Shown here: piece after piece, positions 35,904-42,004 of the stretch | Layout of the letters: each line of letters begins with the position of its first letter | Position numbering within the stretch: position 1 is the first letter of the stretch | Assembly (NCBI GenBank): GCA_965216565.1 | Contig: OZ244170.1 | Location: 3,008,001 to 3,072,000 of the forward strand | Direction of reading: 5' to 3' | DNA: 64,000 bases | Source: Bythopirellula sp. | GTDB taxonomy: Bacteria > Planctomycetota > Planctomycetia > Pirellulales > Lacipirellulaceae | Translations under genes and position numbers: made by a program | The notes under the pieces: generated by a model | Seen by the model: only the letters and a program-made list of their open reading frames with translations | What the model was told of the DNA's origin: nothing | Database searches by the model: none

Positions 35904-37019
35904 TTAAACCGTTACCATCGTCTCGGGCATCTCGCGCAAGAACAGATAAACCATGACCACCAAGCCGATTGCTTCGGGAACTAGCTTATCCAGTGCAGGG
36001 CTCCAGCCTAGTTGGCTACTGAGATAAACGAACGTAGCCGCGGTGAGCACCGAGACGCCAAACAGGAATGTCGCAGAAAGGCTCACGACATCCTTGCCGG
36101 TCCCGCGCAGGTCGCGTAGTTCACGAAAAAACTGATACACGACCAAGGCAAAGATGATCGTGGTACAGATGGAATATTCTGCCAGCGCCGGCACTGCGAT
36201 AAAGGCGTCGTACAGCCCGTGGGCGATTACCGCCAGTCCGAACGTGGCCAGTGCATGGGGCCCCCAACCACTGGGGTTACGCAGGCCCCGATAACAGGCC
36301 AACCCGACTAGCCCTGTCAATGACATATGCATGGGGTTAGCCGTCAAGAAGCGACCCAGCGCATCGGAACCGGCTGATCTCGAAAAGTTGATGCTGTTTT
36401 CCTCCAGTGCAAAACCCAAGCCAACGCACGCTGAGACAATTAACGCAACAATCTCGCAACGCATTCGCACAAGAAGAGGCATGAGAGGAAGCAAACAGAG
36501 GAGCTTCGCTAACTCTTCGCGCAAGCCAACTCCAGCGATGTAGTGCCGCAGCCCACCGACCAACGACGAGCTGTCTTTCAAACCCCATCGAAACTCTTGC
36601 CAGTAAATAAAAAAGAACGTGGGCCAGACACTCAATACGCCTAGCGCTACGCCGGCCAGTGCAAGCCATGTCCGAGAGCCGAGCCAACTCTGCGGTCGCA
36701 TCACTTGCCAAAGAAACGCCAACCAGCAACAGCCGGTGATCGCCGCAAGTGCCAGGGGGCCTGTCTTGCCGACTGTTTCCCACAATCTGGACGGAATCTT
36801 CCACCACAGCTCCTGCCATTGCCCGGCTGATGCCATTTCATCGAGTGCGTCCCAGGGGTTGGCTGTGTCCTCAACTTTCGCCATCTCCGACCCTCGCTCC
36901 ACCGGCGAACCCTGGACGACATAGCCGATCACAACCCCGAGGCCGATAATGATCAACACCATCCGCCAGAGGAATGCCGGTTGGCGGGATTTTGTCTCGA
37001 GCTTTCGTTTCCAATTCAT
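35904..37019 (-). CDS. PrsW family intramembrane glutamic protease
   Basis: REELAK, GLGFALEEN, R.LTA...H, HGLYD motifs; ATG at 37019. Confidence 0.85.
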   Translation of the reverse strand: MNWKRKLETKSRQPAFLWRMVLIIIGLGVVIGYVVQGSPVERGSEMAKVEDTANPWDALDEMASAGQWQELWWKIPSRLWETVGKTGPLALAAITGCCWLAFLWQVMRPQSWLGSRTWLALAGVALGVLSVWPTFFFIYWQEFRWGLKDSSSLVGGLRHYIAGVGLREELAKLLCLLPLMPLLVRMRCEIVALIVSACVGLGFALEENSINFSRSAGSDALGRFLTANPMHMSLTGLVGLACYRGLRNPSGWGPHALATFGLAVIAHGLYDAFIAVPALAEYSICTTIIFALVVYQFFRELRDLRGTGKDVVSLSATFLFGVSVLTAATFVYLSSQLGWSPALDKLVPEAIGLVVMVYLFLREMPETMVTV

Positions 37020-37286
37020 AGCAGCAACTGCCTGAGATCGTTTTGCTTTGCGGAATAGCAGTAGTGTAGCAAGGCCCGGCCAACAGATTGAGGCTTCGTG
37101 CCTAGAGACATCCGCCGGGGGATATTTCTCGGTTTCCGCCCTCCAGCAGAATCTGATATAGTGTGCGGCATTGGAGTACATCCGTTCAGATTCAGGCTGG
37201 AGACTTCGAGGCGGGGAGGCCTTGAGGAGAGTCAGCCCCCCCGAACCCCACAAAGCCTACAGCCTCAAAGCCTCCAGCCTAAAAAA

Positions 37287-39068: not shown

Positions 39069-40610
39069 TTAACTCATCGAAATCGCGGCCTGCTGCTTAG
39101 CCCCATCCACCAACGGAGGCAAAGGCACGTGCCCCTCGCGGTACAACACGTTGTAGGCAGAAAACGGAATCACATGCCCGCTCGGCAACACGTGATGGAC
39201 GCACGACTTCATCAACTGACGAACATCGAAGTTGTAGGCATCCATGAATGAGGTGGTGGTCACCCGGAACACATCCTCGGGGTCCAAGTCTTCGGCCATG
39301 GCCCGACGGAAGAAGTCTTCGCCAATGGCCAGCGACCGCTCGTCCGGAGGGGCGGAAGGCGAGCTTGCTCCAAGTCCCCCTCCCCGGGATGCGCCAGAGG
39401 CGGCTTCTTGGTCATTCGGATTATCCTTAACACCATCGATCTGCACCAGTTGCCCGTCACCACCACAACTGCCATCCGCACAGCAGGAGATCCGCGAAAG
39501 ATACTTGCTTACCAACACACTCGCCCGCTGCCGGTTAAAAGTAATCCGCCCCGCAAGCAGATCGAGATGGTTGGCCAAATCGACAAACCGGGCCAGCGGC
39601 AGAAAATCCTCGCCGCTGCGATACGCGTACGCCAGCGAATGACCATTGGGATGCGCACAAGGCAGCGGTGAGAAATCTGATTCCTGCCAGTAGCTAGGAG
39701 ATTGCTCGACTAGGTGGTGGAACACATCGGGAAACGTCACCCTTCGTTCCAATTCTGCGGGCAACACATATCGGCCCACATAAGTAGCCGGCTGGAAACT
39801 AACGCCCGTCACCCAAGGCCGACGCACGCCGAAATCGACGATCGGCCCAATCTGACCTTCATTCACCCCAGCCTGCAGTGTGCAAACCAGCGTCGTCCGC
39901 AGCCCCGCTTCGCCCAGCTTTTCGATCGCCTTCAGTTTGATCTCCAGCAACGACTCGCCGCGGAGTGCGAGCGAGCTATCTTCGTTCAGCCCATCGAACT
40001 GCAAATAGATTTCCGCGCGGTGCTTGAGCGCCGCCACTCGTTCCAGGAATTCTTGGTCGTGCGCTAGCCGGATCCCATTGGTATTGATCATCACAATGTC
40101 GATGGGCTGCGCGCAAGCGTACTCGAAGATTTCGAAAAAATTGGGATGGATCGTCGGTTCACCGCCGGAGAGTTGCAAAATCTCTGGCTGTCCCTCGACC
40201 TCCACCAGCCGATCGATCGCCCGCCGACATTCGTCCACAGTCAAATGATTCCCGCCCGGGCCGCTGGCCGCAAAGCACATGGGGCAATCGAGATTGCAGG
40301 CCGAGGTGATCTCCAACAACCCCAGACACGTGTGCTGCTCGTGTTCCGTGCAAAGCCCACAATCGAACGGGCAGCCCTGCGTTGGTTCTACACCAAACTT
40401 CTCCGGCACCTTACCTGGCAAACTATAATCGTGCCGATCGAACCACCGCGCATCGCTACAAACAAAATCCTCCCGTGGCCCATGCTCGCGGCAATGTTTA
40501 CGGAAATACACGCGCCCCTCACGCTCCACAATCTTCGCCGGCAACAACTCCAAGCACTCCGGACAGAGACTTTGTGTGGAGCCGAGGTACGTATAGTCGC
40601 GGTATTTCAT
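39069..40610 (-). CDS. Radical SAM enzyme, Tes/GDGT-MAS (MJ0619)-like
   Basis: N-terminal SLCPEC...K.C.EHG, then GCPFDCGLC.EH.QHTC, CNLDCPMC, QLSGGEPT.HP, INTNG, YLQFDG, FQP; C-terminal FMDAYNFD...KSCVH.....G.VIPF.AYN. Confidence 0.85.
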   Translation of the reverse strand: MKYRDYTYLGSTQSLCPECLELLPAKIVEREGRVYFRKHCREHGPREDFVCSDARWFDRHDYSLPGKVPEKFGVEPTQGCPFDCGLCTEHEQHTCLGLLEITSACNLDCPMCFAASGPGGNHLTVDECRRAIDRLVEVEGQPEILQLSGGEPTIHPNFFEIFEYACAQPIDIVMINTNGIRLAHDQEFLERVAALKHRAEIYLQFDGLNEDSSLALRGESLLEIKLKAIEKLGEAGLRTTLVCTLQAGVNEGQIGPIVDFGVRRPWVTGVSFQPATYVGRYVLPAELERRVTFPDVFHHLVEQSPSYWQESDFSPLPCAHPNGHSLAYAYRSGEDFLPLARFVDLANHLDLLAGRITFNRQRASVLVSKYLSRISCCADGSCGGDGQLVQIDGVKDNPNDQEAASGASRGGGLGASSPSAPPDERSLAIGEDFFRRAMAEDLDPEDVFRVTTTSFMDAYNFDVRQLMKSCVHHVLPSGHVIPFSAYNVLYREGHVPLPPLVDGAKQQAAISMS

Positions 40611-40858
40611 TCTTCGTCCTTGGGCTTTCTAAAGAATTTTTGGACTTTATTGGCTACGAACAACGCAACGACTGCACCAAGAGGAAACCCAAGAAACAAG
40701 CCGTATCCGATTGTGATTCCGGCATGATCCGCAGGGCCAGGTTTGGCAACTTCGACCGCAATTCTTGTGACCGAGTGACAGGTCGCTAAAAAAGTAATAT
40801 AAGCAGAGAATCCAGCCAGCAACCAAACTCCGATCGATTTCAGTACTTCACGATTCAT
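40607..40858 (-). CDS. Small two-TM membrane protein with AYITFLATC motif
   Basis: 83 aa; stop overlaps the rSAM ATG (ATGA coupling). Confidence 0.7.
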   Translation of the reverse strand: MNREVLKSIGVWLLAGFSAYITFLATCHSVTRIAVEVAKPGPADHAGITIGYGLFLGFPLGAVVALFVANKVQKFFRKPKDEE

Positions 40859-40892
40859 ACGGAATTCTTTCTCTGCGCTCTACGGTTATATC

Positions 40893-41459
40893 CTAACCCT
40901 TCTCCGCCCGTTTCTTCCTAAAGTGACGAATCAGAGCAAAGATAGAGAGCCCTCCAAAGGCACACATGCCGAGGCCCCAGATTAAATATTCCGTACCGCC
41001 ATGCCTGCTGTCTGTGGAAACCAGCAAAAGACATACACCGCAGAAAGTGGCAAACGCCGCCGCGCAAACCAGGACCGCAATCACCATGGCAGCCGCGAAG
41101 GAACTCGCGAACAGCCCCACCTTTTGCGCTGGCGATACCTTTTGCCCCCGCGCCTCGCTCTCGCGCACATTGCGAATCGTACGCACCAGCACCGGCACTG
41201 CCAGTATGCAGACCCAAAAGCCTAAACCAGGGCTAATCGCCACAATGCCGAATATCACCGACGCCAGGGTTAGCAGCAGCATCGTCGTTCCCAGCGAGAA
41301 TGAAAACTTATCTGGTGCTGACGCCGCCGACTCCGTGGTGACCACCGGCGCACCCAACTCCGTGGTCAAGTCTTGACCGCACAGCCAACACTTAATTTGG
41401 CCCTCTGTTAACTCACCCCAACATTGCGGGCAGACGAGCTTGGTGGATTCCGTAGCCAC
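40893..41459 (-). CDS. Zinc-ribbon (CPQC...CWLC) membrane protein with AFATFCGVC motif
   Basis: Likely GTG start at 41459 (ORF track extends to 41519); four hydrophobic helices. Confidence 0.72.
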   Translation of the reverse strand: MATESTKLVCPQCWGELTEGQIKCWLCGQDLTTELGAPVVTTESAASAPDKFSFSLGTTMLLLTLASVIFGIVAISPGLGFWVCILAVPVLVRTIRNVRESEARGQKVSPAQKVGLFASSFAAAMVIAVLVCAAAFATFCGVCLLLVSTDSRHGGTEYLIWGLGMCAFGGLSIFALIRHFRKKRAEKG

Positions 41460-41524
41460 TTGTGAATTCCTGTGAATAGTGTTTTTTTCGTACCAAGCTG
41501 CATCGATTCGATTAACCAAAACCC

Positions 41525-42004
41525 TCAGTGCACACCCTTAAGTATTTGAGCACAAACCACCAAGAAAGCGATAAACGCGCAAGCAACAACTAGGCCCAAG
41601 ACGCCAATCGTGATAACGACAGCTTTCAAGCCACCAGAAAAATCCTTGAGTAGCGTTTGACGCGAAACCGGCTTGCCTTGCAAAAAGCCAACAACGGTTC
41701 TTATCACAAGAGGTAAGAAAGCGGCTGTCCCAATCACTCCCAGTAGCGGAGTGATTCGGTAAAGCCCCCCCATGACAAGAACGGATACCAATAGTACGAC
41801 GATGTGTGTTCTGGAAACTTCCTTCTCGGTGTGCTCCAGCCTGGAAGCTGAAGATTCGATAACACGTACCGGGATCTCCGCTGAGGTTTGTTCCCTCGCT
41901 CCCTGCCCCGCTCCGCAAAGCCAGCAGTTCGCTTGGCCAGCGAGAAGCTTCGCCCCGCATTGGGGGCAGAGGGGATGGTTGGACACCACTGTGTTCTCAT
42001 TCAT
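41525..42004 (-). CDS. Zinc-ribbon (CPQC...CWLC) membrane protein with AFIAFLVVC motif, paralogue of the neighbouring gene
   Basis: 159 aa; ATG overlaps the upstream stop (ATGA). Confidence 0.72.
   Translation of the reverse strand: MNENTVVSNHPLCPQCGAKLLAGQANCWLCGAGQGAREQTSAEIPVRVIESSASRLEHTEKEVSRTHIVVLLVSVLVMGGLYRITPLLGVIGTAAFLPLVIRTVVGFLQGKPVSRQTLLKDFSGGLKAVVITIGVLGLVVACAFIAFLVVCAQILKGVH

Follow-up and report, generated by a model that had tools for sequence, protein, structure and literature searches.

The window, a stretch of 64,000 nucleotides from a Bythopirellula genome, contains six minus-strand genes between rpmF-fabD and ruvB which form an operon in the order P0003, P0006, P0002, P0001, P0004 and P0005. 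Start and stop codons overlap at 42001-42004 and again at 40607-40610, where the stop of P0001 overlaps the start of P0004. The first gene, P0003 (42001..42708), encodes a stand-alone six-helix membrane domain and is an accessory gene of the cassette. It is followed by three genes for what are here called Cys proteins: P0006 (41525..42004), 159 aa long with a zinc ribbon and three membrane helices; its paralogue P0002 (40893..41519), 208 aa when read from a TTG, with a zinc ribbon and four membrane helices; and P0001 (40607..40858), an 83-aa helical hairpin without a Pfam family. A GTG at 41459 with AGGA upstream is an alternative start for P0002 and may be the true one, and the GC content of P0001 (46% against 55% for the window) hints at recent arrival or fast change. 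The operon closes with P0004 (39069..40610), a radical SAM enzyme of the Tes/GDGT-MAS kind (PF23545 and PF04055), and P0005 (38335..39063), which is the second Lgt of this genome (PF01790) and has an aliphatic residue at the position of His103. Nothing above cut-off was found in Pfam or NCBIfam for P0001, P0002, P0006 or P0003, and the Atlas matches of P0002 were unnamed planctomycete clusters only, all under 0.9. Past ruvB there is a gene for a PrsW-family intramembrane protease (35904-37253, minus strand), which is probably unrelated to the cassette since it is also present in a genome that lacks the cassette (G004).

Each of the Cys proteins carries a short motif, read from the minus strand, that terminates in a Cys at or close to the end of a hydrophobic helix. 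In P0001 this is AYITFLATC at the end of helix 1 (aa 19-27, 40778..40804, with the Cys27 codon at 40778-40780), in P0002 it is AFATFCGVC at the end of the third hydrophobic helix (aa 155-163, 41031..41057, Cys163 codon 41031-41033) and in P0006 it is AFIAFLVVC, with its Cys 8 residues before the C-terminus (aa 143-151, 41552..41578, Cys151 codon 41552-41554). The initial annotation had united the three strings as a motif A-[FY]-x-[TA]-F-x-x-x-C, and the strings and their Cys codons lie exactly where it had put them, in helix 1 of the 83-aa protein and in an internal or C-terminal helix of the other two. Its description of the proteins as otherwise divergent does not hold for two of the three, as P0002 and P0006 are paralogous and share the zinc ribbon, a helix pair, a conserved P/RT and the Cys helix. 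In a set of 4,711 ORFs without mutual overlap, used as a proxy for the proteome of the same genome, A[FY].[TA]F...C occurs 4 times with 0.65 occurrences expected by composition; three of the four are P0001, P0002 and P0006 and the fourth falls in a hydrophilic stretch. In a post-hoc null, 200,000 triplets were drawn at random from small membrane ORFs, and 54 of them showed a comparable Cys-anchored pattern with a minimum of 2 identical and 4 identical-or-two-letter positions (the observed values being 2 and 5), although this null overstates the case because P0002 and P0006 are paralogues.

As a family signature the exact motif turned out to be over-fitted, since only 4/68 unique relatives match it in full. 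Counts over the 68 unique windows, made after the chosen Cys had been corrected by hand in four proteins, place F at -4 in 49 and at -3 in 34, T, V or A at -1 in 52, and L, F, I, V, A or M at +1 in 57, while A at -8 and F or Y at -7 are found in 31 and 17. The signal is carried by the F at -4 together with the Cys, and a better form of the motif is F-x-x-[TVA]-C, standing where a long helix reaches its outer end. A Cys-helix HMM recovered P0002 (E 2e-6) and P0001 (E 0.056) from their own genome, where it missed P0006 and gave no convincing further target (one 70-aa ORF, E 0.03); the helix alone is therefore too simple for genome-wide scanning.

The conservation of the Cys was followed in 95 loci gathered around close relatives of P0004, of which 7 were duplicates, many were on short contigs and 78 held a relative of P0005. 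Membrane ORFs of <330 aa upstream of the radical SAM gene were taken without using the Cys for selection, yielding 74 ORFs in 50 of the 88 non-duplicate loci. A Cys that ends an apolar run of 18 residues is present in 69 of the 74; in the Bythopirellula genome itself, 107 of 410 such small ORFs have one. Conservation in orthologues had been set beforehand as a test on which the proposal could fall, and the Cys was invariant in 33/33 rows of alignment A1, a full-length alignment of 33 zinc-ribbon members from 66 P0002 and 47 P0006 matches from which duplicates and rows with doubtful long starts were omitted. The only invariant residues across these 33 rows are two zinc ligands and Cys163. The short hairpin type, which includes P0001, aligns on Cys27 in 29/29 rows, these having been selected by their Cys. 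Mean column identity in alignment A2 is 23%, with sequence outside the helix poorly conserved, and the Cys helices contain several further Cys residues. Minimal members have little beyond the helix and its Cys, with 3-12 residues following the Cys, and the Bacteroidota forms are only 59-64 aa long. The zinc ribbons, the N-termini of NPY type and the tails appear to be interchangeable parts set around one putative acceptor helix.

The helix also has a consistent orientation. In 56 of 69 ORFs more Lys and Arg residues precede the helix than follow the Cys, and the opposite is seen in one. The positive-inside rule is the basis for reading such a charge bias as topology, and the Cys is therefore predicted to lie outside in every architecture, oriented as it would be in a type II signal peptide. 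The uncharged run before the Cys is ~26 residues long (median), compared with 14 in 79 candidates with a lipobox of the canonical type.

The distribution of the family was related to that of the two enzymes in 61 related genomes. A close radical SAM enzyme (E <1e-160) was found in 15 and a close Lgt paralogue (E <1e-80) in exactly the same 15. The A1 profile (E <1e-12) has matches in 14 of these 15 genomes and in 4 of the other 46, the A2 profile in 9/15 and 1/46, the last a marginal match (E 9.5e-4) with two stops. Taken together the two profiles place the Cys family in 15/15 genomes with the enzyme pair compared with 4/46 without it, in agreement with the expectation that its phyletic profile should follow the pair. 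A caveat that must be applied to these figures is that some of the positive genomes were used in building A1 and A2 and that kin genomes are not independent, so that the negatives carry the weight. Of the four genomes with matches but no enzyme pair, two retain a Cys copy and two do not. G004 (93% complete) has the order ruvB-relic-rpmF-fabD at the same site, both enzymes are gone and Phe replaces the Cys. In G023 (83% complete) a relic without the Cys is found 3 kb from ruvB. The enzyme-less G041 retains a copy with the Cys, and the gene that follows has 30 residues of the Lgt paralogue joined to it, which indicates either a deletion or a misassembly; G038, also enzyme-less, has three distant homologues, one of them with the Cys. 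A wider survey of 251 genomes across the phylum gave A1 matches reaching the Cys helix in 5, all of them among the 8 with a close enzyme. Parts of the cassette on separate contigs are nonetheless retained together in G029, G047, G063 and G024. Up to seven diverged copies of the Cys protein were found per genome, and in G047 seven zinc-ribbon A1 matches lie in a row behind P0003 (L270, G047:C11:10000-20671) on a contig apart from the enzyme pair.

The association extends to distant loci, in which the enzymes are ~40% identical and which include two Bacteroidota and one actinomycete record. A small membrane Cys protein with an outward helix was found in 18 of the 22 distant loci with an Lgt paralogue, no Cys protein being nearby in the other 4, and in 0/3 of the Lgt-free loci, one of which ends at a contig edge. 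A subclade comprising L163, L173 and L176, with the order radical SAM gene then Lgt paralogue, has Arg in place of Lys73, an altered HPTQLYE segment and no Cys protein nearby. Among the longer relatives of P0005, 71/72 are an Lgt fused in front of a radical SAM domain, and in both of the fusion loci that were retrieved (2/2) the genes directly upstream encode zinc-ribbon hairpins bearing F-F-x-T-C, three proteins in all and none of them used in the profiles. A metagenome scan with the fusion protein returned one uninformative fragment. The cassette is also present in the cultured strains Lacipirellula limnantheis I41, Botrimarina colliarenosi Pla108, Chondrinema litorale and Persicobacter psychrovividus. 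The neighbourhood varies in detail: in two Rubripirellula bins a PF01553 acyltransferase gene is directly upstream of the Cys protein (L087 4243-5112 and L088 4271-5074), and in L093 and L081 the radical SAM gene and the Lgt paralogue stand ~4 kb apart, with other sequence in between. No dedicated Lsp or Lnt and no recurring protease or signal peptidase paralogue was seen in the 22 commonest neighbour clusters, as far as sequence starts show.

P0005 matches PF01790 with E 3.8e-33 and scores 57.8 bits against TIGR00544, below the cut-off of 118.9. Elsewhere in the genome there is a stronger Lgt (196 bits against 114 for P0005), a separate housekeeping enzyme that makes P0005 a spare copy. Paralogues of the P0005 type keep the equivalents of E. 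coli D129, G142, R143, G154, H196, Y235 and R239 in 46-50 of 50 rows, with D129 and G142 kept in 48-50 and R143, G154, Y235 and R239 in 49, 48, 50 and 50. The position of His103, mapped from a weak 10-bit alignment segment, is occupied in the 50 rows by L (31), V (13), T (2), M (2) and I (1), and 49/50 rows have Lys or Arg three positions ahead of it. The available part of one study (PMC13251419) reports that Y26, H103, R143, N146, G154 and R239 are required in E. coli Lgt, and that some species have Y, W or F in place of H103, and distant species C in place of N146. The housekeeping Lgt of the present genome has Tyr at position 103 and also N146C. N146C/E151C was considered as a mark of the paralogue and was rejected, as it is also found in this housekeeping Lgt. 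With Leu or Val at the position of a His that is essential in the E. coli enzyme, normal Lgt chemistry is not assured for the paralogue, and P0005 looks, from its sequence, like a transferase with an altered catalytic segment.

P0004 is related to Tes but at some distance. It scores 281 bits against the Tes model NF045702 (cut-off 450), with E 2e-70 by sequence to Tes/GDGT-MAS, and its best NCBIfam score is 325 bits against the TrsS model NF045646, which is below the cut-off of 490. The predicted structure (pLDDT 84.8) matches the GDGT-MAS fold with a TM of 0.75 and E 1.7e-38, far above the next family, and the protein is without a signal peptide. Over 40 rows the rubredoxin site, the N-terminal cluster and the ligands of the radical SAM cluster, as assigned in the accessible text of PMC9433317, are invariant or nearly so. 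The C-terminal region differs. The labile Met439 at the C-terminal cluster of GDGT-MAS and the neighbouring Cys align to Thr-Thr in P0004 (Met439 to Thr453), and for this reason tail coupling by P0004 is not assured. The P0004 family has invariant C318 and C470 and a further 2-3 Cys within 365-445 in 40/40 rows, the accessible text of PMC9433317 giving no numbers for the ligand Cys. The fused Lgt-radical SAM forms have a fuller C-terminal set of Cys and a reduced N-terminal one. A quick tree of the radical SAM enzymes, where L055 and L035 are labelled solely for the absence of an Lgt from the stretch analysed, placed the Lgt-linked enzymes in at least two groups with weak deep branches, and no single origin is therefore claimed for them.

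What Tes homologues do in bacteria has been discussed in terms of membrane lipids. One study, as far as its text was available (PMC8941075), described 456 bacterial Tes homologues, which were only hypothesised to make membrane-spanning lipids, and the available part of another (PMC13159169) states that such homologues are absent from most known producers of membrane-spanning lipids. There is also a 2026 review (PMC13459092), in the available portion of which the words 'Lgt' and 'lipoprotein' do not occur. Tes-like genes were also met in other settings during the present survey. One locus (L164, G103:C15:8000-25000) has three Tes-like radical SAM genes and a ketoacyl synthase with no Lgt paralogue, possibly a lipid-building cluster; tandem pairs of Tes-like radical SAM genes are found in G071, G151 and G270; and a Tes-like gene on a Mycolicibacterium vanbaalenii plasmid (L130 4977-7345) is accompanied by a methyltransferase, again with no Lgt paralogue.

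P0003 gave no significant match in Foldseek. Its fold resembles the membrane module of ImcA (VIA Z 14.5, rmsd 3.2, 192 aligned) and those of adenylyl cyclases (Z 13.9), the VIA score being near the level that helical bundles can reach by chance, and there are weak 6TM_PilS matches and no catalytic part. It is present in 13/15 genomes with the cassette and 0/46 others, and is missing from most of the distant loci that keep Cys proteins and both enzymes. Weaker relatives of P0003 are parts of proteins of 530-1010 aa, one of which is a Ser/Thr kinase (L047 272-1843).

The Cys motif is a real signal, and a conserved one, within a module of three parts (Cys protein, radical SAM enzyme and Lgt) of which no account was found in the literature searched, a body that included a minority of the subscription journals. 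The conserved Cys at the end of the long helix is probably a dedicated lipid acceptor of the neighbouring Lgt paralogue, a reading that draws on gene context, which also suggests that the paralogue recognises the motif. The attached glyceryl lipid is predicted to have been modified beforehand by the Tes-like radical SAM enzyme. On this scheme the cytoplasmic radical SAM enzyme would modify a phospholipid, and the Lgt paralogue, sometimes fused to it, would then move the modified glyceryl lipid to the outer-face Cys, the order of the two steps being suggested by the predicted topology of a cytoplasmic enzyme and an outer-face Cys. A modified lipid donor would explain the need for a second Lgt, and the changed His103 segment of the paralogue would fit a different donor or acceptor. 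Because the helix runs from inside to outside, the Cys would reach the outer-leaflet site of Lgt wherever it stands in the chain, and because the equivalents of Arg143, Arg239, Asp129 and Tyr235 are kept, the paralogue would be expected still to use a phosphatidylglycerol-like donor. The Cys proteins are probably not cut by signal peptidase II, since Thr or Val predominates at -1 and in many members a further helix follows. The simplest guess at the radical SAM modification, and a tentative one, is that it joins two acyl tails as Tes does. The scheme in its most complete form, in which the Tes-like enzyme would weld acyl tails together to give a phospholipid that is macrocyclic or spans the membrane, and the paralogue would transfer this lipid to an internal, uncleaved F-x-x-T-C, is possible but doubtful.

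Other explanations of the module differ in what the Cys is for. The minimal members, of 59-64 aa in the Bacteroidota, barely exceed the helix and its Cys, and conservation outside the helix is weak, both of which would suit lipid carriers: a lipid loaded onto the Cys by the paralogue would be worked on there, and a short lipopeptide or altered lipid would then be released. Such a role is improbable, however, as no protease or signal peptidase paralogue recurs among the neighbours, the Cys is predicted to be outside with a radical SAM enzyme that is without a signal peptide, and the diverged copies, as many as seven in one genome, are more in keeping with a set of targets than with a single carrier. 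A Cys that is never lipidated, and that has a structural or sensing role (in a disulfide, at a metal or as a dimer contact) within a membrane complex that includes P0003 while the enzymes act on lipids alone, is quite unlikely. The sensor-type fold of the P0003 membrane module, the way in which P0003 tracks the cassette and the several other Cys in the helices speak for it, but P0003 is missing from most distant loci with Cys proteins and both enzymes, and a single outer-face Cys after a helix running from inside to outside is the geometry used by Lgt. It is very unlikely that the radical SAM enzyme bonds the Cys sulfur to a lipid-tail radical to give a thioether, the paralogue only binding or presenting the lipid. 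GDGT-MAS does pass through a carbon-sulfur intermediate according to the accessible text of PMC9433317, the C-terminal cluster region of P0004 is unlike that of GDGT-MAS and the paralogue lacks His103; against this, the Cys is predicted at the outer face, away from the cytoplasmic enzyme, and the donor-binding arginines are retained in the paralogue. That the motif is a chance pattern of hydrophobic helices is scarcely credible: it was written after the sequences had been seen, full matches are rare among the relatives and there is paralogy between two of the three proteins, but such an origin is contradicted by a Cys that is invariant and linked to the enzyme pair.

If the Cys is an internal acceptor for the Lgt paralogue that functions independently of position, proteins of this kind would escape lipoprotein predictors. 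An anchor with joined tails, if true, would be a new protein modification and would provide a function for a large share of the bacterial Tes homologues, which have no demonstrated function and yet serve as markers for producers of branched tetraethers; should many of them work in protein lipidation instead, their use as markers would need to be revised. The system is small, with three to six genes, and is present in cultured strains.

Each component can be set beside a known system. P0004 shares with the archaeal tetraether synthase Tes/GDGT-MAS (MJ0619; PDB 7TOL and 7TOM), which couples two lipid tails through a C-C bond, the fold and the rubredoxin, N-terminal and radical SAM ligands, but it is without Met439 and its neighbouring Cys, is bacterial and is partnered by an Lgt paralogue. 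Its likeness to the TrsS radical SAM (seleno)protein consists in its top NCBIfam score, which is below the cut-off. P0005 resembles Lgt (E. coli, PDB 5AZB/5AZC; PF01790; TIGR00544) in its retained Asp, Gly, Arg, His and Tyr equivalents, but unlike the housekeeping Lgt it scores under the cut-off, is aliphatic at His103, is a second copy and in some lineages forms a fusion with the radical SAM enzyme.

The Cys helix itself invites comparison with the type II signal peptide and its lipobox, which is acted on by Lgt and then LspA, in that it has positive residues, an apolar helix, a Cys predicted at the outer face and an adjacent gene of the Lgt family. The lipobox consensus is [LVI][ASTVI][GAS]C in the available text of PMC12462473, and it was found in 1/68 unique relatives and in none of the three window proteins, where -1 is T, V and V; only P0001, with Cys27, fits by position, so that the initial view of the motif as something other than a normal N-terminal lipobox is upheld. 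The Cys helix differs further in being often internal or near the C-terminus, in its longer uncharged run (~26 against 14), in the F at -4 and in the Thr or Val at -1. The Cys proteins have no soluble exported domain after the Cys and are tied to the paralogue and not to the housekeeping Lgt. The nearest precedent for lipidation of a Cys that is not N-terminal is the MYXO-CTERM/myxosortase system, for which the available part of PMC11980579 describes an invariant Cys beside a C-terminal membrane helix and proposes Lgt-like lipidation. In that system, as far as the same text goes, the Cys is before the helix, giving an inverted topology, an Arg-rich tail follows, a protease cuts the protein and no cognate transferase is known, whereas in the present module the Cys comes after the helix, no protease recurs and the cognate Lgt paralogue is encoded next to the Cys proteins.
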